A stretch of DNA of 64,000 nt, taken from NCBI GenBank assembly GCA_965226055.1, contig CBDDCA010000006.1:258251-322250 (forward strand). The letters are read 5' to 3'. Positions 6,015-55,864 of this stretch are shown here, piece after piece. Origin of the DNA: Spirochaetia bacterium (lineage in GTDB: Bacteria > Spirochaetota > Spirochaetia > WTKD01 > G963693115). A program made the translations under genes and the position numbers. The notes below the pieces were generated by a model. The model made no database searches and had not been told where the DNA came from. It was given only the letters and a program-made list of their open reading frames with translations. How positions within the stretch are numbered: position 1 is the stretch's first letter; each line of letters begins with the position of its first letter.

Positions 6015-6998
6015 TTATTTATTGTTCATCCCTCGTTTTATACGCTGATTATCAAGATAGACCGCTAGTATTACTACTAAGCCTATAATAATCTGCTGCC
6101 AAAATTGATTCACCTGCATAAGATTAAGCCCATTCCGTAACACACTCATAATCAAAGCTCCTATGACTGTCCCTAGTATAGTCCCTACTCCTCCCGATAA
6201 ACTTGCTCCTCCTATTACTGCAGCAGCAATTGCATCAAGCTCTAATCCTGTAGCAATAGATGGTTGCCCCGAATTCAAACGTGCAGCCATAATGATCCCT
6301 GCAAATCCACACATAGCTCCTGAGAAAGTATATACAAAAAACTTCACTAATTTTACAGAAATTCCCGAAAGCCTCGCTGCTTCTTCGTTGCTTCCAAGTG
6401 CGAAAATATATCTTCCTACTACCGTTTTTGATAATAGTAAATGAGCTATCACTGCAAACACAGCAAGATAAATAACAGGCATAGGTAATATACCGTACAT
6501 ATCATAATTATATAACAGCTTAAAATTCTGTTGTTGATTAAAATATATTGGTCTGCCACCACTCAACACTAAAGCAAACCCTCTCGCACTTATCATAACC
6601 CCAAGGGTAGCAATAAAAGGAGGCAATTCTAAATGTGCCACTACTACACCGCTAAAAGCACCACATAGTATACCAGATATAACTCCAATGACAAGTGCTG
6701 GAGCTATAGCCATGCCAGATCTTAAAAGAAGAGCTACAATGACCCCCGAAACAGCGACAATAGAACCAACAGAAAGATCAATACCTGCAGTAATAATAAC
6801 TATAGTAATACCAATAGCCACAATACCAGTTACTGCAGTTTGTTTAATTACTGTTATGATATTATCATATTTTAAGAAATAAGGACTTGCAAAAGAGAAA
6901 AATATTACAAGTAACAATAAACTTGCAAATATAGCTAATTTTTGAATAGTACTAGAATTTATCATCGATTTTTTACAGACAATTTCTTTTTGTGACAT
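6015..6998 (-). CDS. Sugar ABC transporter permease (RbsC/BPD_transp_2 family)
   Basis: A 327-aa polytopic membrane protein with a typical RbsC-like hydrophobic profile, placed between the ATPase and the SBP. Confidence 0.8.
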   Translation of the reverse strand: MSQKEIVCKKSMINSSTIQKLAIFASLLLLVIFFSFASPYFLKYDNIITVIKQTAVTGIVAIGITIVIITAGIDLSVGSIVAVSGVIVALLLRSGMAIAPALVIGVISGILCGAFSGVVVAHLELPPFIATLGVMISARGFALVLSGGRPIYFNQQQNFKLLYNYDMYGILPMPVIYLAVFAVIAHLLLSKTVVGRYIFALGSNEEAARLSGISVKLVKFFVYTFSGAMCGFAGIIMAARLNSGQPSIATGLELDAIAAAVIGGASLSGGVGTILGTVIGALIMSVLRNGLNLMQVNQFWQQIIIGLVVILAVYLDNQRIKRGMNNK

Positions 6999-7026
6999 TA
7001 TAATAACTCCTATTTATAATACATAT

Positions 7027-8547
7027 CTAATTTTCATGTTGCATATGACCAGTAGCATATAACATAATTTTTTCCTGTGTAATATCTTGTTTTTCTAATA
7101 TACCTGATACTTCTCCCGAACACATTACCAATACTCTATCACTCATCCCAACAATTTCACTTAAATCTGAAGATACCATTATGATAGAAAGCCCAGTATC
7201 AGTTAAAGAAGTAATAAGATCGTATATTTCACGTCTTGCTCCAACATCAATACCTCTTGTAGGCTCATCAAAAATCAAAACATCGCATTGCGTACACAAC
7301 CACCGAGCAATAATCACTTTTTGCTGATTTCCTCCACTTAAATAGCGTACAATCTGAGTTAAAGAAGGAGTTTTTATACGTAAAGAATCTACAAATTCTG
7401 TACAATGCTCTCTTGCAATATTTTTGTTAATGATCCCTATCTTTTTAGAATGTTCCTTTATGGTAGCAAGGATTATGTTTTCTTGTACATTGAGATTAAG
7501 AGCAAGTCCATTTTTTTTCCTATCTTCAGTCAGATATCCAATACCATGCCTTATTGCATCACGCGGAGTATTGATAGCAACTTCTTTAGAATGAACAAAT
7601 ACTTTACCACTATCCTTCGGATCTGCACCAAAGATAGCTCTCATTAACTCAGTACGACCAGCTCCCACTAAACCAGACACTCCTAGTATTTCTCCCTTAC
7701 ACAAAGAGAACGATATATTCTTTAAGTCAGGATTACGCTGTATATTTTCTACACGCAAAATTTCCTCTCCTCTATGAGGATGCCTCGTAGGAAACATATC
7801 AGTAAGCTCTCTTCCTACCATAAGATGTATAAGATGTTCAGTAGTAGTATCCGCATAGTGCAAAGTATCAATATACTGACCATCTCGAAATACAGTTACT
7901 CTGTCCGCAATTTCTTCCAGCTCCTTCAATTTATGAGAGATAAAAATAATTCCTTTTCCTTGCTCTTTTAGTCTACGTACTGTACTAAACAATACTTCTG
8001 TTTCTGCTTCACTTAATGTTGCTGTTGGCTCATCCATAATGAGAATATCACAAGACACTGAGATAGCTTTAGCAATCTCTACCATTTGCTGTTCTGCAAC
8101 ACTTAAAGTACTTACTTTTGCATATACATCAATACTATAATTAAGTAACTGCAATATTCTATTTGCTTCTTCATTTAATTTTTTCTCATTAAGCACATAC
8201 CGAGCATAGCGTGGTTCTCTCCCAATAAATATATTTTGTGCAACAGTAAGATGGGAGAAAAGATTGAATTCTTGATGAATAATACTAATACCAATTTCCT
8301 GTGCTACATGAGGATTAAGCACTTCAATTTTCTTACCACGATATATAATATCTCCTTTATCTGGTTGATATACTCCAGTAAGAATTTTCATAAGAGTAGA
8401 TTTGCCTGCCCCATTTTCACCTAAAATAGCATGTACTTCCCCTGCCTTTACATCTAAAGACACATTTTGCAACGCCTTTACTCCAGGAAAAAATTTAGAT
8501 ACATCTTGTACCTTCAACAGCATATCGCTTTTATTTTGTGCCATCAT
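7027..8547 (-). CDS. Sugar ABC transporter ATP-binding protein with two fused NBDs (RbsA/MglA type)
   Basis: Two Walker A motifs (GENGAGKST; GLVGAGRTE), two LSGG signatures (LSVAEQQ / LSGGNQQK), and a ~500-aa length. Confidence 0.85.
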   Translation of the reverse strand: MMAQNKSDMLLKVQDVSKFFPGVKALQNVSLDVKAGEVHAILGENGAGKSTLMKILTGVYQPDKGDIIYRGKKIEVLNPHVAQEIGISIIHQEFNLFSHLTVAQNIFIGREPRYARYVLNEKKLNEEANRILQLLNYSIDVYAKVSTLSVAEQQMVEIAKAISVSCDILIMDEPTATLSEAETEVLFSTVRRLKEQGKGIIFISHKLKELEEIADRVTVFRDGQYIDTLHYADTTTEHLIHLMVGRELTDMFPTRHPHRGEEILRVENIQRNPDLKNISFSLCKGEILGVSGLVGAGRTELMRAIFGADPKDSGKVFVHSKEVAINTPRDAIRHGIGYLTEDRKKNGLALNLNVQENIILATIKEHSKKIGIINKNIAREHCTEFVDSLRIKTPSLTQIVRYLSGGNQQKVIIARWLCTQCDVLIFDEPTRGIDVGARREIYDLITSLTDTGLSIIMVSSDLSEIVGMSDRVLVMCSGEVSGILEKQDITQEKIMLYATGHMQHEN

Positions 8548-8649
8548 TCATACCTACATACATTATCTCAAGAATACTAAATGAATTACTCTTTTTACAA
8601 TGTTTTAATATAAAAATGCACTGCAAAACAAAGAATATCCTTCCTAATA

Positions 8650-9642
8650 CTATTTACTTGTGTATTTTATAGAAACCCATATCCGAAACGAACTACTTTT
8701 TCCGTTATATTTACCACTTCCTTGAAAGCTAATTGTATACAATTTCTGTAATAGCTTCCCTTTTGCTTTACCACTTATTGTACCAGAGCTAGTATCAAAA
8801 CCTAATCCTGTCTCATCGTTAATATCAGGAGAAATAGCATAGCGACCAGATATATCACTGGGATTTGCATCAAAACTCACCGATATATCAGTATCTTTGT
8901 CAGCAATAGCCATAATGAACGGTAAGCCATTATACGGTTCTATGGTAACAGCATCATTCCCGCTTGGAGTAAATACATAGCTCCAGCCAGGAAGTTTTAC
9001 ACTCGTAACACCTGAATTATCAAATATACCTTCTACTCTAATAGTATCTTGTATATCCCATTCCTCTAAATCATGCTTAAACCCAGTGGCTCCCTTAAAC
9101 ATATTAATCATATTATTGATAGTATTGTTTACTTTCCACGTTGATATATCTTGATTAAACTGTGTCGCTCCTGCAAACATACTGTTCATATTTTTCACTT
9201 TCTCTACTTTCCACACTGATATGTCTTGATCAAACTGTGTTGCTCCTGCAAACATACCACTCATATCGGTAACATTACTGACATTCCAGCTTGATATATC
9301 TCCATTAAAATGAGTATTTCCCTTAAACATATTGCTCATATCGGTAACATTACTGACATTCCAGCTCGATATATCTCCATTAAAATTAGCTAAATCTCCA
9401 TCACTACTAAATAAACCACTCAAATCTGTCATATTACTTATATCTATATTTGAGAGATCTGTTTCCCATCCATGAAATGAAACTTCACGTTTTATATTAT
9501 TAGCTAGTACTTGTTTATCCGATGGATGATAGACAAAAGACAAGTCTGTAGATTCCTGACTACAACTAAAAAGCAGTAGCAATCCCATTCCTATCATCCA
9601 TAGAAAATAATACTTATATGCTTGAGCATTACATTGTCTCAT
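8650..9642 (-). CDS. DUF285-repeat lipoprotein with a C-terminal He_PIG-like Ig domain. A small paralog of the 2822-aa neighbour
   Basis: Lipobox (LLLFSC). Four repeats of '..F.G...FN.DIS.W.VS.VT.M..MF' (Mycoplasma-type DUF285), then 'SPDINDETGLGFDTSSGTISGKAKG' (the TGxISG signature). Confidence 0.7.
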   Translation of the reverse strand: MRQCNAQAYKYYFLWMIGMGLLLLFSCSQESTDLSFVYHPSDKQVLANNIKREVSFHGWETDLSNIDISNMTDLSGLFSSDGDLANFNGDISSWNVSNVTDMSNMFKGNTHFNGDISSWNVSNVTDMSGMFAGATQFDQDISVWKVEKVKNMNSMFAGATQFNQDISTWKVNNTINNMINMFKGATGFKHDLEEWDIQDTIRVEGIFDNSGVTSVKLPGWSYVFTPSGNDAVTIEPYNGLPFIMAIADKDTDISVSFDANPSDISGRYAISPDINDETGLGFDTSSGTISGKAKGKLLQKLYTISFQGSGKYNGKSSSFRIWVSIKYTSK

Positions 9643-26797: not shown

Positions 26798-26866
26798 AAA
26801 TTACTCCTTTAATTATTATTAGTATATCATATATGTACATATTATATTTTTATAACAAGAAAATAT

Positions 26867-26906
26867 CACGAGTTCAAGGATTAAATGCGACAAAGGAGCA
26901 AGAAAC
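26867..26906 (+). repeat. Solo IS30-family left-end (IRL) copy. It heads a ~410-bp cassette duplicated at 54278-54700
   Basis: 'cacgagttcaaggattaaatgcgacaaaggagcaagaaa' is followed by sequence that is more than 95% identical to 54325-54700. Confidence 0.55.
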
Positions 26907-27047
26907 ATAAAACAAGCATATTTTTTATTAGCTACTACATATAGTGTATATTTAGTATATAATTTTCAATTTAAGCACTAGAGAAATTTGCTTTATTTTT
27001 ATATTAATGCTATACTAAATGCAGAATAATAAGAGAACAATAACATT

Positions 27048-27281
27048 ATGAGTGTACAAGCAAAAACTGATACAAAAGAAACTACTTTAATTTTAAATAA
27101 TACCGATAAGGAAAATTTGGAAAGATGTTTCTCGGAATGGAAATTCAAAGATTATCAAAGCCTTATGAGGTTCGTATCATCTATTTTAATTGAGAGCGAA
27201 GATAAAATAACAATAGGCATTAAGAAAAGTGGAGTGCTAAAAGAATTTTCACCAGCAGATCATTTACTAAAAGATTCATAA
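27048..27281 (+). CDS. Small hypothetical protein (77 aa) carried on the duplicated IRL cassette. Its paralog is at 54474-54731
   Basis: An ORF is conserved in both cassette copies (MSVQ(A/V)KTDTKETTLILNNTDKENLERCFSEWKFKDYQSLMRFVSSILIESEDKITIGIKKSGVLKEFSPADHL). I recognise no known domain in it. Confidence 0.45.
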   Translation: MSVQAKTDTKETTLILNNTDKENLERCFSEWKFKDYQSLMRFVSSILIESEDKITIGIKKSGVLKEFSPADHLLKDS

Positions 27282-27626
27282 ATGGCAGATAATCAAAACA
27301 ATAAACCTAATGCTGAGTATAGCATTGAACATCAATTAAAGGAGTTAAAGCAAGATATAATTACCCCTCATAAATTTGCAAAGATATTTTCTGATGCTAT
27401 GCGTGAATCAAAAGGTTTAGATGAAAGTATACAAAAATGCTTAAAAGAGCTTATAGCTAAAGATGATGATATTAAAAAGGAAATTTTTGAGAGAATAAAA
27501 GATTACATCAAAGAAGAAAGAAAGTTATTTAATACATCAGTATGGAAAACATCTAAAGACATTATTCTTTTAATTGTAGGTGCTGGAATATCGTTTTTAT
27601 TTACATGGCTAGCAAAGTTTCTTTAA
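27282..27626 (+). CDS. Hypothetical coiled-coil protein with a C-terminal transmembrane anchor (114 aa)
   Basis: Its start abuts the stop of the 77-aa ORF (taaATG). A charged helical N-terminal region is followed by 'IILLIVGAGISFLFTWLAKFL'. Confidence 0.45.
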   Translation: MADNQNNKPNAEYSIEHQLKELKQDIITPHKFAKIFSDAMRESKGLDESIQKCLKELIAKDDDIKKEIFERIKDYIKEERKLFNTSVWKTSKDIILLIVGAGISFLFTWLAKFL

Positions 27627-27673
27627 GTAGCTAAAAAGAAGCTATACATTTGATACCGCACTTGATACCACGA

Positions 27674-28360
27674 CTACTCTCTCTGTAAGTGCTCTATAAT
27701 CATTTCTTTTGCTTCTGAAATCTCTAATAACGATGTTATAAAATAGTGCATATTCTCTTTTTGATGGAATTTTCTCTCATTGACTATCTCATCATAGTTA
27801 ATACACAGTAAACTACACAGCTCTTCTCCTGTATATGCCTCATACTCATTTATCTTATTCTTGAAGCCTGTCACTATCTGTTTTTTGTCTGTTACATTAA
27901 AAGAACACATCACAGGAGTAACGGTAAACTGTATTTCTCGTGATATAAAATTAATATATTCGTGTAAATGCCGTCTCTCTCCCGCTGATTTTTTAGTATC
28001 AAATTGATCTCCATCTTTTACTTCTATGACATAACAATTCTGCACATTCTGTTTTGTTTTTTGGAATGCTACAAAATCAGGCTCAAAAGATTTCTGAGCT
28101 ATTAAGGATTTTTTTATTTGTTGTTTGTTCGCTACCCATATTCCTTCTGGATAGGAATCTGACTTTAGATAAGAGTCAATATCTGTTATTTGATTACAAC
28201 GCTCCCATATAATCTTTTCTAGTTCATTCCCTGCTGATATTACTGTAGCTTGTAACTTACTTATCAAGTTACCTAGCTTTTCATTCCCTACTATTCTTGT
28301 ATAACCACTTGGAGACTGTTTCGTATCTCTTCCTTTTGCTTCACTGAGAAGAGCATTCAT
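27674..28360 (-). CDS. Putative Type II restriction endonuclease (PD-(D/E)xK fold)
   Basis: '..[26 protein letters not shown]' fits a PD...(D/E)xK motif. The start overlaps the upstream methyltransferase stop by 4 nt. I see no other recognisable family. Confidence 0.55.
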
Positions 28361-29070
28361 GTTTCTATTATATCACATCCTAAAAAATTTCTGTTTGATT
28401 TTTTACATGCTTCAAATACAGAAAAACTACCGCTTGCAGGGTCTATTACTATATCATCCTCATTTGTTACTGCTTCAATCAATGCTTTTTGTAGCTCTAT
28501 TGGCTTGTTATGAGCATGATTTCTCTCTACTTTCTCATCCCATACATCTCTTATAGTATGAACAGTCCATACTCCCTTTGCTCTTTTAGGAGCTTTCTGA
28601 ATAACATATACATATTCTGATACTCGCCTTGTTCTATACCCCATCCCTATTCTTTGTTTATTCCATGTTATAAGATCCACTATTTCTAAATGAGTTTCTA
28701 CTAACCACTTACTAATACCATTACACAAAATAAATTTGTCTACCCATAAAAAACAATGCCCCATAGGATGCAATACTCTATCTATCTCTTTTATAAACTT
28801 GTCTATTATTTTATCTGTCATCTGTGGCAAAATAGCTCTCGCTTTTTGCCGCTCCCCTTCATTTCCATATCCTTGCTTATCTAAGATTCCTCTATACTGA
28901 GGATCAAAAAATACTACTGGGAATGTATTACTATCCAACTTAGAAAGAAGATCTAAGCCATCCATCTGCATTTTTGTGTTTAGTGTTAGTCCTTTCGCTA
29001 ATGTTATATCTCCTTGCTTAATATCTCGCTTACTCGAATATACATTATTGGGATTATACTGTGCTTTCAT
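28357..29070 (-). CDS. DNA methyltransferase, beta class (N6-adenine/N4-cytosine; N6_N4_Mtase family)
   Basis: Motif IV 'VVFFDPQY' near the N-terminus and motif I '[15 protein letters not shown]' near the C-terminus. The IV-then-I order marks a beta-class amino-MTase. Confidence 0.75.
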
Positions 29071-30632
29071 GATAAGAGAGAATAGTAGCTTTGTAACACT
29101 GGATGAGGATCTCCTTTCAACAAAGTATGTGTTAGTACTTTTCCTAACTGCACCCCTTCTTGATCAAAAGAATTGATGTTCCATAAGAACCCTTGAAACA
29201 TTACTTTATTTTCAAAGTGTGAAAGTAACGCACCAAGTGTGTACGGAGTTGCCATATCAGCATACAATACACTGGAAGGACGATTTCCTATAAACAGCTT
29301 ATGTGCATTATCATTATCCTTTCCCATTGAAAACGCCACTATCTGTGCTGCTAAGTTTGCCAACAGCTTTTGTTGACTTGTAGAGCCTTCATAGGATATA
29401 TCATGTTGCATCTGAGAATGAGTAAACGCTATAAACTGTAATGGTACAATATCAGTTCCCTGATGTAATAGCTGATAAAAACTATGCTGTCCGTTTGTCC
29501 CTGGTTCTCCAAACACTACCGGTCCAGTAGTATAGTCAATACGTTCCCCAAAACGATTTACTTGTTTTCCATTACTCTCCATATCAAGCTGTTGTAAATG
29601 AGCAGGAAAACGAGATAACGCCTGACTATACGGAAGCACTGCAGTGTAAGGATACTTAAGAACATTACGTTCGTACACACCAATAAGAGCATCTATCATT
29701 GCAGGATTTTGCATAACAGGAGCAGTATACGCTATCTTATCACTCTCATGTGTACCACGTAAAAACTCCCGTGTTATATCGCTTCCATAGGCAAGATTTA
29801 AGAGACATACTCCCACCGCACTACTTACCGAATAGCGTCCACCAATATAATCATCAATAAAAAAAGAATCGAGGTAATCTTTTGATTGTGCTAAAGGACT
29901 TGTTTCAGAGGTTACACATACCATATGCTTTTTGGGATGTTTAATACCTGCTTGTTGTAACCATTCTAACGCAAACTGAGCATTGGTAAGCGTTTCTTGT
30001 GTTGTCCCACTCTTTGAAACTAAAATAAACAATGTTGTTTCTGGATTAGCAAACAATAATTGTTCTCCCGTATCATCAGGGTCAACATTACTTATAAACC
30101 CTACTTTTCGTATAGGAATATCTTTTCTTTTTGCGTATACATAGGAACGCAAAGCAAGATATACAGCACGAGGGCCAAGATCTGAACCTCCTATTCCTAT
30201 TTGAATAAAAGTATCAAAAGGTTTTCCTGTTTCTCCTACTATTTCTTGGGCATGTACTTTTTTTGCAAAATTTTCACAAAGGCGTATCTGTTCGGCATAA
30301 AATTCATTATAATTTCTCCCTTCTTTTTGGACTACAGTGTCTAACTGTCCACGAAGAGCATGGTGTAATACCATACGCTGTTCGCCAGTGTTTACTATTT
30401 CCCCATTTACAAGCTGAGAAAACATTTCTTTGAGTTGTTGTTCTTCTGACAGAGCATAGAGTTGCTGAAGTATCTCATCGTTTACTCTTTTTGCAGAAAA
30501 ATTATAGCGGTATCCAGCTCCTGCTACATCATATTGTTGAATACGTTTTGCATCAAATTGTTCATAACTAAACAATGGCATATCACTTAACTTCTTAAAA
30601 TTAGTACAATCATTTAAGTTCTTATTACTCAT
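29067..30632 (-). CDS. pgi: Glucose-6-phosphate isomerase
   Basis: A 521-aa PGI-family protein (..[11 protein letters not shown].., ..ESNGK..) with typical length. Its stop overlaps the start of the MTase gene. Confidence 0.85.
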
Positions 30633-30829
30633 ATATTCAGTATAATAGAATTACTATATTTTATTTCAAATATCCTTTCGCATACCTAGTAACAATACTC
30701 CTATACCAGCTTAACCTATTAAAAAGTAAAAGGCACAGCACTAATACCGTAAACTTAATACTATCTTAACAATTTTTTAATTATTATCTCATATAGATAC
30801 TCTATACTGTAAGAAAAAAAGGAGATACT

Positions 30830-43990: not shown

Positions 43991-44046
43991 ACACTAGTAC
44001 AAGTATATCATACTAGTACTATTTTTATTTAAGTCAACAATAACGA

Positions 44047-44085
44047 TCACGAGTTCAAGGAGTAACTGCGACAAAGGAGCAAAAA
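44047..44085 (+). repeat. Solo IS30-family left-end (IRL) remnant at the junction of the tandem HtrL duplication
   Basis: 'cacgagttcaaggagtaactgcgacaaaggagcaaaaaa' matches the IS30 left end at 54784 with four mismatches. Confidence 0.5.
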
Positions 44086-54195: not shown

Positions 54196-54283
54196 ACTTA
54201 CTCCTATTGATTAAAATATATTACATGGTATTTTACATTATATTAAAACAATGGTATTGTTGCAGTAACTTATTATTGGGGAT

Positions 54284-54324
54284 CACGAGTTCAAGGATTA
54301 AATGCGACAAAGGAGCAAAAAAAG
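54284..54324 (+). repeat. Solo IS30-family left-end copy heading the second duplicated cassette
   Basis: The 58 bp from 54281 are identical to 54781-54838, the left end of the intact IS. Confidence 0.6.
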
Positions 54325-54473
54325 TAAGAAAAATAAAACAAAGCATATTTTTATTAGCTACTACATATAGTGTATATTTAGTATATAATTTTCAATTTAA
54401 GCACTAGAGAAATTTGCTTTATTTTTATATTAATGTTATACTAAATGCAGAATAATAAGAGAACAATAACATT

Positions 54474-54731
54474 ATGAGTGTACAAGTAAAAACTGATACA
54501 AAAGAAACTACTTTAATTTTAAATAATACCGATAAGGAAAATTTGGAAAGATGTTTCTCGGAATGGAAATTCAAAGATTATCAAAGTCTTATGAGGTTCG
54601 TATCATCTATTTTAATTGAGAGCGAAGATAAAATAACAATAGGCATTAAGAAAAGTGGAGTGCTAAAAGAATTTTCACCAGCAGACCATTTAGTAAACGA
54701 TGTCAGAACCTCAGAACAACCAAAAAAGTAG
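54474..54731 (+). CDS. Small hypothetical protein (85 aa), paralog of 27048-27281 with a divergent C-terminal tail
   Basis: Identical over the first ~72 residues apart from one substitution (A5V), then '..HLVNDVRTSEQPKK' where the other copy reads '..HLLKDS'. Confidence 0.45.
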   Translation: MSVQVKTDTKETTLILNNTDKENLERCFSEWKFKDYQSLMRFVSSILIESEDKITIGIKKSGVLKEFSPADHLVNDVRTSEQPKK

Positions 54732-54785
54732 TGATAATTATATCACCGATCAACAGTTAAAGGAATTTAATTATGTCACCGATCA

Positions 54786-55864
54786 CGAGTTCAAGGATTA
54801 AATGCGACAAAGGAGCAAAAAAAGTAAGAAAAAATAAAAAAAGGAGACACTCTATAATTGTATAAACGAAACAAATTAGGAGGTCTCCTTTATGAGTATA
54901 CCAAAAAACTCATTTCGTCATCTGACAGAGAAAGATCGTACTATTATCGCTACGCTCCGTCATGCAAAGTACAGTGTCAATGCTATAGCCAAACGCCTCA
55001 GTGTCCATCGCAGCACTGTCTATCGTGAAATACAACGCAATGGGGGCAAACGTGTCTATAATGAAGTCATTGCTCACAGACGGGCAAGAAAACGATGGGA
55101 ACAGAGTCATACAAAACACTCTGTTCTTTCTCATACTATTCGTACCTATATCGTTTTTCACCTTATTTTCGATGGCTGGTCGCCCGAACAAATAGCAGGA
55201 AGGCTCAGTATTGATATGCCTCAGTATGCTATCAGTCATGAGACGATATATCACTTTATTTACCGTTTCGCTCCTCATTTGACACAGTATCTGCGAAAAC
55301 AGCACCAAACACGCAAAAAAAGAACCATATCTCACTCTTTTTCTGTTTCTCGTATCCCTCATCGTGTCTCAGTACACGAACGAGGCGATGTTTCTAATGA
55401 ATATGGCCACTGGGAAGTAGATCTTGTTGGCTCTTCTTCAAAAGCTACTGTGCTTGCTTTAGTGGAAAAACATACCCGTTATGTTCTTTTTCATAAGATA
55501 CCTGACAAAACTGCTCATACCGTACAGTATGGCATGCTCTTTGCTCTAAGGAACATACCACGCCATTTATGTAACAGTTTCACTTATGATAATGGGAGTG
55601 AATTTATGCTCCATACTGAAATAAATACACGCTTGAATGCTCGTTCTTATTTTTGTACTCCTTACTGTGCTTGGGAAAAAGGATTAGTCGAACATTCTAT
55701 TGGATTATTACGTCAGTACTTTCCTAAGAAGACTTTGTTTCATAGAGTCAAGCAAAGTGATATACTACAAGTACAAACGCTTATCAATCATAGACCACGA
55801 AAATGTCTTCATTTTTTGACCCCTGCTGAAGCCTTTTCTGTCGCATTTAGTCCTTGAATCCGCA
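54786..55864 (+). mobile_element. Intact IS30-family insertion sequence (~1.08 kb) with terminal inverted repeats of ~23-25 bp
   Basis: IRL 'cgagttcaaggattaaatgcgaca' (54787-54810). The reverse complement of the right end (55839-55863) reads 'gcggattcaaggactaaatgcgaca'. A single transposase ORF is present and its stop lies inside the IRR. Confidence 0.8.
54892..55857 (+). CDS. IS30-family DDE transposase
   Basis: An N-terminal HTH ('..NAIAKRLSVHRSTVYREIQRNGG', cf. IS30 '..RSTISRELKRN') and a C-terminal DDE region (HWEVDLV ... YDNGSEF ... CLHF). An RBS 'aggagg' lies 8 nt upstream. Confidence 0.85.
   Translation: MSIPKNSFRHLTEKDRTIIATLRHAKYSVNAIAKRLSVHRSTVYREIQRNGGKRVYNEVIAHRRARKRWEQSHTKHSVLSHTIRTYIVFHLIFDGWSPEQIAGRLSIDMPQYAISHETIYHFIYRFAPHLTQYLRKQHQTRKKRTISHSFSVSRIPHRVSVHERGDVSNEYGHWEVDLVGSSSKATVLALVEKHTRYVLFHKIPDKTAHTVQYGMLFALRNIPRHLCNSFTYDNGSEFMLHTEINTRLNARSYFCTPYCAWEKGLVEHSIGLLRQYFPKKTLFHRVKQSDILQVQTLINHRPRKCLHFLTPAEAFSVAFSP

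Follow-up and report, generated by a model that had tools for sequence, protein, structure and literature searches.

HhaII of Haemophilus haemolyticus is reportedly the first restriction-modification (R-M) system to have been cloned (by Mann, Rao and Smith in 1978), and it is said to have been sequenced by Schoner et al. in 1983. The system cuts G^ANTC, and its methyltransferase M.HhaII produces m6A at GANTC (PMC7026639). The two genes lie head-to-tail (PMC3039593). Motif IV of M.HhaII (P00473) reads DPQYR instead of D/NPPY (PMC4190342), and the enzyme does without the C-terminal segment of about 80 residues that serves strand separation in CcrM and M.HinfI (PMC7672430). R.HhaII is a predicted PD-(D/E)XK nuclease, and the HinfI and HpyAIV endonucleases are placed in families separate from it (PMC2441816). 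The insertion of an R-M system into an operon-like structure has an earlier example (Furuta, Abe and Kobayashi 2010; PMC2853133). The 'transporter IS' (tIS) of the IS1595 family carry passenger genes, according to the passages of PMC3129680 and PMC2853133 that cite Siguier, Gagnevin and Chandler 2009.

The window analysed here (the whole stretch of 64,000 nucleotides) contains two genes directly behind pgi which very probably constitute an ordinary, intact two-gene Type IIP R-M system of the HhaII family. The features of the locus are as follows.

29067-30632, minus strand: pgi (glucose-6-phosphate isomerase, 521 aa), from the open reading frame list and profile matches
28357-29070, minus strand: beta-class DNA amino-methyltransferase, 237 aa, from the open reading frame and Pfam and PADLOC profiles
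27674-28360, minus strand: predicted Type II restriction endonuclease of PD-(D/E)XK type, 228 aa, from a PADLOC profile
28894-28905, minus strand: methyltransferase motif IV, DPQY (residues 56-59), followed by R60; predicted catalytic loop
28420-28443, minus strand: methyltransferase motif I, DPASGSFS (residues 210-217); predicted AdoMet binding
28016-28084, minus strand: predicted nuclease catalytic motif E93-P94-D95-x17-E113-V-K115, from the homologue alignment
30642-30669, minus strand: sigma-70-like promoter match TTGAAA-16-TATTAT, a consensus match at 10/12 positions
26975-28409, no strand: segment missing from the sister genome L001, from blastn colinearity

The genes follow one another in the order pgi, methyltransferase (M), endonuclease (R), and both junctions take the form ATGA, a 4-nt overlap of stop and start (29067-29070 between pgi and M, 28357-28360 between M and R). 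The TGA stop of pgi overlaps the ATG of M, with no DNA in between. Both overlaps described in the original prediction are thus seen in the sequence, and the perfect ATGA junctions confirm that the R-M genes are physically welded to pgi. The pgi product matches PF00342 (E 5.8e-127) and NF010695 (705.7 bits against a cut-off of 703), and its C-terminus ends where those of 80 homologues end, so that the insertion left pgi unaltered. Neither the M nor the R reading frame contains a frameshift or an internal stop, and the R-M pair is apparently intact. By composition the pair does not stand out as foreign: neither GC nor GC3 sets M-R apart (0.33, where the window averages 0.35). An Rfam scan of the window returned no match, and two small convergent reading frames gave nothing credible in PHROGs, Pfam, NCBIfam or PADLOC.

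The 237-aa protein matches the Pfam family PF01555 (N6_N4; 69.4 bits, cut-off 26.7) and the PADLOC profile MTase_II PDLC03271 (E 1.4e-84), and has more than 3000 homologues; an exact search for it in the contig index gave no entry. Its motif IV lies N-terminal to motif I, which is the order of the beta permutation. In a PDB search the protein aligns with the beta-class m6A enzymes M.MboIIA (1G60, over both motifs, with motif I on motif I) and DpnA; N4-cytosine methyltransferases are also among the matches (E about 5e-5). Across 25 homologues, residues F54, D56, P57, Q58, Y59 and R60 are invariant, and so are D210, P211 and G214. The beta-class assignment proposed from motif order agrees with the Pfam match, the 1G60 alignment and the invariant motifs. 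The protein ends 4 residues past motif II, and only its residues 178-233 are covered by the NCBIfam CcrM model, whose score of 31 bits stays below the cut-off of 830. An N-terminal extension of about 20 aa, conserved in close homologues, is missing here; many homologues likewise begin near residue 9, so that the extension is dispensable. M is taken to begin at the ATG overlapping the stop of pgi, because the conserved V10 and R15 need this start.

The 228-aa protein matches the PADLOC profile REase_II PDLC03487 over profile positions 4-226 of 227 (E 2.5e-52), and some of its 176 homologues bear the NCBI name 'restriction endonuclease'. Profile searches assigned it to no Pfam or NCBIfam family, and a PDB sequence search returned only chance matches to GST. 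Residues E93, P94, D95, E113 and K115 do not vary across 35 homologues, nor do E46 and E48, which sit on the long helix before them; behind the motif comes DGDxFDTKK, invariant or nearly so, with D116 and D118 at 90% or more. The arrangement first written as 'PD-x18-E-V-K' is present as P94-D95...E113-V114-K115, but its spacer has 17 residues, not 18. The AF2 model is confident (pLDDT 92, pTM 0.85), alpha/beta and nuclease-like, with the order helix-strand-strand-strand-helix-strand around the motif. The motif itself falls on strands 96-101 and 107-115, between helices 27-54 and 122-140, D95 opening one strand and ExK closing the next. The top PDB fold matches of the model, all with weak scores, are EcoO109I (probability 0.95), BsaWI, Card1, NucS and AvaII. 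The full-length profile match and the PD-(D/E)XK-like predicted fold suggest that the protein is most likely a Type II endonuclease of PD-(D/E)XK type, with D95, E113 and K115 as predicted catalytic residues and E46 and E48 as helper acids. Enzymes of the ScaI, BglII and PabI types, which are of similar size, were rejected as relatives, since Pfam models or solved structures are available for these families and none of them matched the protein.

The two genes belong together far beyond this genome. Among 80 genome loci kept from a longer list of matches and spread over many phyla, the methyltransferase lies directly upstream of the endonuclease homologue, on the same strand, in 79. Conjugative plasmids of Campylobacter carry the pair annotated as 'DNA methyltransferase' and 'restriction endonuclease'. 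The profiles of both proteins and the near-universal M-R order identify a Type II R-M pair, and the compact combination of a beta amino-methyltransferase with a PD-(D/E)xK nuclease, as originally proposed, is upheld by profiles, predicted fold and synteny alike. The motif IV variant DPQY had been singled out as uncommon. It is indeed rare, but it is no oddity of this gene: DPQYR is invariant in the family and published for M.HhaII, which points to a system that is most likely HhaII-like (G^ANTC, m6A). This reading draws on the published motif, the profiles and the gene order rather than on an alignment with the HhaII sequence itself. In PADLOC the methyltransferase profile spans 228 positions and the endonuclease profile 227, which we take to be the lengths of M.HhaII and R.HhaII. 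'HhaII' does not appear as a source name among the 120 best matches listed for each of the endonuclease, the methyltransferase and the Campylobacter plasmid homologue; the names in these lists are 'restriction endonuclease', 'DNA methyltransferase' or 'hypothetical'. On this reading, the 237-aa enzyme would most likely methylate the adenine of GANTC (m6A), and the 228-aa endonuclease would most likely cut unmethylated GANTC in incoming DNA.

The closest relatives of the pair (L005 and L004) show the cassette in another setting. There an IS1595 transposase abuts M in the order transposase-M-R, so it is the cassette, and not pgi, that accounts for the tight coupling to whatever lies upstream. 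Complete elements with M-R, bounded by inverted repeats of 26-29 bp and target duplications of 8 bp, occur in four lineages (L063, L008, L009 and L004). Their transposase combines an ISXO2-like DDE domain (DDE_Tnp_IS1595) with a Zn ribbon, and their inverted repeats begin with GGGAaTTAT; the ends presumably fit the ISNwi1 subgroup of ISfinder. The palindromes CTTAAG and CAATTG in the inverted repeats were considered as recognition sites and dropped, since they vary from element to element and the idea has no support. A Ruegeria MAG contains at least 14 near-identical copies (at least 99.85% identity) in one genome. Homology between the window and the relatives stops at 29065 and 27660, and no transposase, inverted repeat or target duplication was found flanking M-R in the window. 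The M-R cassette probably came in horizontally, as its absence from 80 other pgi loci and its setting in the relatives indicate, and may have done so on such a transposon. Its transposase and inverted repeats would then have disappeared together with some 20 N-terminal codons of M, so that M was left joined to the natural stop of pgi.

No promoter, terminator or controller gene of its own is recognisable for M-R. The best promoter match of the region lies just upstream of pgi, and this site likely drives pgi-M-R; no terminator-like site was found between pgi, M and R. Promoter-like sites in the region are fewer than in shuffles (11 against 20). A weaker promoter-like match (9/12) inside the 3' end of pgi, at 29069-29097, makes separate transcription of M-R possible. 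Most likely, M-R would be read from the pgi promoter, and translation would probably proceed by termination-reinitiation at both ATGA overlaps. With this mode of translation and the order M then R, the methylase would be made before the nuclease and at least as abundantly.

The sister genome L001, with 96.9% nucleotide identity, retains the pgi-M junction and an untouched pgi. Colinearity in blastn breaks at window positions 28410 and 26974, where a 1.4-kb deletion took the 3' end of the methyltransferase gene, including motif II, and the whole endonuclease gene. The missing segment comprises M from codon ~221, all of R and two small plus-strand reading frames, and the deletion junction bears a TTGAA microhomology. 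The L001 methyltransferase ends in GSFSVFEVEIIY followed by a stop, without RNFLGCD. The relatives also show decay: R is split into 141 + 83 aa in L004, and M stands alone in L003.

The assignment of both genes to one R-M family leaves room for a recognition site other than GANTC, or for m4C in place of m6A. Members of one R-M family can differ in specificity, the beta class includes m4C as well as m6A enzymes (the N4-cytosine matches noted above among them), and the likeness to HhaII draws on motif, profiles and gene order. On the other hand, the rare DPQYR is common to this methyltransferase and M.HhaII, the D-P-x-Y form is typical of adenine methyltransferases while m4C enzymes usually have S-P-P-Y/F, and the best structural relatives in the PDB search are m6A enzymes. 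The host DNA speaks in the same direction. Of 32 non-alphaproteobacterial host loci, with an observed/expected ratio of 0.84 for GANTC, 29 fall under expectation; of 39 control loci, with a ratio of 1.03, 19 do so. The window taken alone, at 0.81 (z about -2.0), shows no significant signal. This weak avoidance is in modest agreement with an HhaII-like specificity and is not unique to the site, as GGNCC is more depleted than GANTC in the same host loci, and TCNGA and CCNGG nearly as much. We consider a different site or modification rather unlikely. A reading of the 228-aa protein as a nuclease outside restriction (repair, Type IV or toxin-like) beside an orphan methyltransferase could appeal to its lack of a Pfam or NCBIfam family and to Card1, NucS and Cas4, nucleases of other functions whose folds match at similarly weak scores. 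It is hardly credible against the full-length PADLOC Type II match, the position of 79 of 80 homologues, across phyla, right behind a methyltransferase of this one family, and the joint movement of M and R in transposons and on plasmids.

The HhaII-like R-M pair might also be a remnant that is decaying or silent, its methylase an orphan and its nuclease inactive, as the truncated M of L001 without R, the split R of L004, the solitary M of L003 and the missing N-terminal extension could suggest. But both reading frames are full length and uninterrupted and hold every family-invariant residue, and the shorter N-terminus is shared with many homologues; decay of the window copy seems quite improbable. 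The original prediction held that linkage to pgi would stabilise the module, and an adaptive anchoring of a selfish R-M module to an essential operon would fit the perfect ATGA coupling, with no intervening DNA, and the retention of the pgi-M junction in two related genomes. This part of the prediction is not supported. L001 lost R and the C-terminus of M by an internal deletion beside an intact pgi, so operon linkage gave the module no protection, and neither M nor R occurs at any of 80 more distant pgi loci (57-62% identity); the linkage is seen in this lineage only. Since in its relatives the cassette adjoins a transposase just as closely, anchoring by selection is improbable, and the attachment to pgi is a local accident. 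Linkage to pgi would give the HhaII-like pair expression, not permanence.

Two genes, of which the nuclease had no Pfam name, can now be annotated as an R-M system that is probably HhaII-like and specific for GANTC. The label offers a prediction that can be checked in methylome data and points to a probable barrier to transforming the organism. Two genomes of 97% identity share one pgi-M junction, which is followed by the nuclease in one of them and not in the other; this clean natural experiment shows that fusion to an operon is no safeguard against the loss of an R-M module. Of greater interest is what the relatives reveal: the R-M family crosses phyla inside IS1595-family transposons, and high copy numbers are possible in one genome. 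More tentatively, and with some doubt, HhaII-type M-R might be viewed as a promoter-less IS1595 passenger that is expressed from whatever gene lies upstream, can be amplified, and can be captured by a housekeeping operon after loss of the transposase. If so, the window would represent the end state of a transposon-to-operon domestication of a restriction system, and IS bursts would drive the dosage and spread of restriction enzymes.

The R-M family is long known, and the pair described here is a further HhaII-like member. It shares with HhaII a small beta-class m6A-type methyltransferase with DPQYR as motif IV and no C-terminal segment of the CcrM/HinfI type, head-to-tail genes, and an endonuclease predicted to be of PD-(D/E)XK type; the HhaII proteins are presumably about 228 aa each, like the pair here. 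It differs in its host, a low-GC (35%) uncultured bacterium and not a member of the Pasteurellaceae, and in its genes, which are fused to pgi without any space to themselves. With HinfI and CcrM it shares the probable recognition sequence GANTC and beta-class m6A chemistry, but not their C-terminal segment of about 80 residues. Relatives of the pair ride on tIS-like elements as passengers, whereas the window copy, with no transposase, inverted repeat or target duplication, is at most a stranded remnant of one. The locus also resembles operon-inserted R-M systems, such as SsuDAT1I, which sits between purH and purD in Streptococcus suis: a Type II pair lies between or behind housekeeping genes, at a translation stop, with the target gene intact, and is present or absent between close relatives. 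It departs from them in that this locus showed neither a long target duplication nor flanking repeats, and in that its junction is a perfect 4-nt overlap of stop and start.

The two reading frames directly after pgi, a 237-aa methyltransferase gene (M) and a 228-aa nuclease gene (R), form a genuine Type II restriction-modification system, to all appearances intact, of a long-known family. The features of the locus are as follows.

29067-30632, minus strand: pgi, 521 aa (PF00342, E 5.8e-127; NF010695, 705.7 bits)
28357-29070, minus strand: methyltransferase M, 237 aa
27674-28360, minus strand: restriction endonuclease candidate R, 228 aa
27282-27626, plus strand: 114-aa ORF with a hydrophobic C-terminal tail, convergent to R
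27048-27281, plus strand: 77-aa ORF abutting the 114-aa ORF, convergent to R
30642-30669: best sigma-70-like promoter match (10/12 positions), just upstream of pgi
26865-26901, 44046-44082, 54282-54318 and 54782-54818, minus strand: four copies of the 37-nt dispersed repeat TTGCTCCTTTGTCGCATTTAATCCTTGAACTCGTGAT

The original prediction described the reading frames, overlaps and motifs of this locus correctly, except that the spacer between PD and ExK in R is 17 residues rather than 18. Both junctions read ATGA, each stop codon sharing 4 nt with the next start, and the M start thus overlaps the pgi stop as had been proposed. This ATG is fixed as the start of M because V10 and R15 are invariant among 25 homologues (56-95% identity); an N-terminal extension of about 20 residues, conserved in the closest homologues, is missing from the window's protein. 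The predicted beta-class amino-methyltransferase is borne out by motif order, with motif IV (residues 56-59) preceding motif I (residues 210-217), and by a match to Pfam N6_N4_Mtase of 69.4 bits (cut-off 26.7). A PADLOC Type II methyltransferase profile matches nearly end to end (E 1.4e-84). The nearest solved structures are the beta-class adenine methyltransferases M.MboIIA and DpnA, on whose DPPY and motif I the DPQY and DPASGSFS of M align. DPQY had been singled out as uncommon; since F54, D56-P57-Q58-Y59-R60, D210-P211 and G214 are invariant in the 25 homologues, it is a hallmark of the family rather than an oddity of this gene.

R matches no family in Pfam or NCBIfam, and a few of its 176 homologues carry the NCBI name 'restriction endonuclease'. 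The PADLOC profile REase_II (PDLC03487) covers it at positions 4-226 of 227 (E 2.5e-52). Among 35 homologues (45-71% identity) E46, E48, E93-P94-D95, E113 and K115 are invariant, and the DGDxFDTKK following ExK varies little or not at all (D116 and D118 are kept in at least 90%). In an AlphaFold model built from this alignment (pLDDT 92, pTM 0.85), D95 opens a strand and E113-x-K115 closes the next, flanked by a long helix (27-54) and a second helix (122-140); the predicted core order is that of PD-(D/E)XK. A Foldseek search of the PDB returned EcoO109I (probability 0.95), then BsaWI, Card1, NucS and AvaII, all PD-(D/E)XK nucleases with weak scores (best E 5.5e-3, TM about 0.33), and no close solved relative. 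Profile match, invariant catalytic residues and predicted fold together uphold the assignment of the 228-aa ORF as a nuclease of this type.

The strongest evidence that R is the restriction component is synteny. In 79 of 80 loci from species-representative genomes encoding an R homologue, tblastn located the same methyltransferase family directly upstream and in the same orientation, and this conservation excludes a chance neighbour. Host genomes belong to Spirochaetota, Patescibacteria, Actinomycetota, Chloroflexota, Bacteroidota, Poribacteria, Alpha- and Gammaproteobacteria and Firmicutes; conjugative Campylobacter plasmids carry the pair as well, under the labels 'DNA methyltransferase' and 'restriction endonuclease'. 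Many hosts are associated with sponges or invertebrates (Poribacteria, Poriferihabitaceae, Porifericomitales, a Spongia bin, Ruegeria), which suggests exchange within that habitat, with sampling bias as an alternative.

In the closest relatives of the pair (loci L002/L005 and L004, 70-78% protein identity), an IS1595-family transposase (DDE_Tnp_IS1595 with a Zn ribbon) lies directly upstream of M, and in one of them the transposase stop and M start overlap in a manner resembling the pgi junction. Across loci, elements bearing the pair have 26-29-bp inverted repeats beginning GGGAaTTATATAC and 8-bp target duplications:

Ruegeria MAG NZ_CBDAQX01 (loci L062-L064, L066-L074, L076, L077), about 6224-8971 of each locus: 2,748 bp, transposase-M-R plus an 86-codon ORF
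Actinomycetota MAG (L008, 5927-8713): complete element, 2,787 bp, related ends, target duplication TTAATTTA
Staskawiczbacteria MAG (L009, 5050-8292): complete element, 3,243 bp, related ends, target duplication TTATCTTT
L004, 5038-7496: complete element, 2,459 bp, related ends

The Ruegeria MAG holds at least 14 copies of its element (identity at least 99.85%, most 100%), three of them (L068, L071, L073) interrupted or truncated; the terminal inverted repeats of the element are perfect over 26 bp (GGGAATTATATACTTAAGTAACATTT), and several copies have 8-bp target duplications. Such a copy number is unusual for a restriction system and comes from a single MAG, in which assembly artefacts are possible. 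Several further hosts retain partial transposase remnants before M. The window's pair has no transposase, inverted repeat or target duplication, and its homology to relatives ends at 29065 and 27660. The simplest history would be arrival on an IS1595-type transposon followed by a deletion fusing M to the pgi stop. These multi-copy, transposon-borne relatives, which lie outside the window, are the most notable observation, although the idea itself has been published before: insertion sequences with passenger genes, and restriction-modification or solitary methyltransferase genes linked to them, are known (PMC3129680; PMC2853133).

Neither gene follows pgi in 80 metagenome pgi loci (57-62% protein identity). 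PGI ends there at the homologous position (...LLNI* or ...LLS*, against ...SLLS* in the window), so the cassette sits exactly at the natural stop and leaves pgi unaltered. One close relative shares the arrangement, L001 from a 2.36-Mb circular metagenomic assembly, colinear with window 35070-28410 through the pst operon, pgi and the methyltransferase (96.9% nucleotide identity) and resuming at 26974. Missing there (26975-28409) are the last approximately 17 methyltransferase codons with motif II (RNFLGCD), all of R and the two small convergent ORFs. The junction carries TTGAA microhomology, and the methyltransferase ends ...GSFSVFEVEIIY*; its truncation implies a deletion in L001 rather than an insertion in the window. 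To judge from this comparison, the module was lost through a small internal deletion with pgi intact, and the proposal that it gains stability from its linkage to a core gene is therefore not supported. Insertion of restriction-modification genes in operon-like structures at translation stops was known earlier (PMC2853133); the fusion with pgi is a modestly interesting accident of this lineage. Stages of decay are seen in related metagenomic genomes: the nuclease split into 141 and 83 aa (L004, 6795-7497), the methyltransferase alone amid unrelated genes (L003, 6001-6735), and the methyltransferase cut off before motif II (L001, 6001-6678).

The two small ORFs lie in a low-GC stretch (0.28-0.29) and gave nothing credible in Pfam, NCBIfam, PADLOC or PHROGs. 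An approximately 490-bp duplicate pair (26865-27349 and 54282-54770, 91% identity) comprises an intergenic stretch and the 77-aa ORF, whose second copy (54474-54731, 96% protein identity) has an IS30-like transposase gene (54892-55857; HTH_38 and rve) after it in place of the 114-aa ORF. The four copies of the 37-nt repeat differ by 0-2 mismatches, none being expected by chance; the repeat has no Rfam match, and one copy lies at the final end of the colinearity with L001. It may be an IS end, a promoter/operator or a recombination site.

The pair is set among housekeeping genes, flanked by those for a sugar ABC transporter and by pst-phoU, and not within a defence island. No terminator-like hairpin separates any of the three genes, the 3' end of pgi holds a single weak internal promoter-like match (9/12), and direct reading of the sequence revealed neither a controller protein nor, before M or R, a recognisable Shine-Dalgarno sequence. 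The pgi promoter would drive a transcript through M and R, and ribosomes ending at the pgi TGA would reinitiate at the overlapping M ATG, and likewise from M to R, so that the methylase would be made first. M would then methylate host GANTC sites, and R would cut unmodified GANTC in incoming DNA through D95, E113 and K115. R probably acts as a homodimer, the usual form of Type IIP enzymes that cut symmetric sites.

Site avoidance was assessed in DNA flanking the pair. The observed/expected ratio of GANTC is 0.84 in non-alphaproteobacterial hosts (below expectation in 29 of 32 loci) against 1.03 in control loci (19 of 39), 0.81 in the window (z = -2.0), and 0.74 in alphaproteobacterial hosts, a figure confounded by CcrM. 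In the same host loci GGNCC is depleted more than GANTC, and TCNGA and CCNGG almost as much; the avoidance supports GANTC specificity without settling it. In the whole window CCNGG is strongly rare (18 observed, 47 expected), CGNCG absent (10.6 expected) and GTNAC over-represented (190 against 146), departures that hint at further restriction systems in the host or at biased mutation.

The source name 'HhaII' is absent among the matches listed for R, M and the Campylobacter plasmid homologue. M.HhaII and R.HhaII are presumably 228 and 227 aa long, the lengths of the two matched PADLOC profiles. The invariant DPQYR of M is exactly motif IV of M.HhaII (P00473), described as 'DPQYR instead of N/DPPYN' (PMC4190342), and M, like M.HhaII, is without the C-terminal segment of CcrM and HinfI (PMC7672430). 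The HhaII genes lie head-to-tail (PMC3039593), and R.HhaII is predicted to be a PD-(D/E)XK enzyme (PMC2441816). By these shared traits the pair quite probably belongs to the HhaII family. HhaII cleaves G^ANTC and M.HhaII forms m6A at GANTC (PMC7026639), and GANTC is, with somewhat less assurance, the favoured specificity of the pair.
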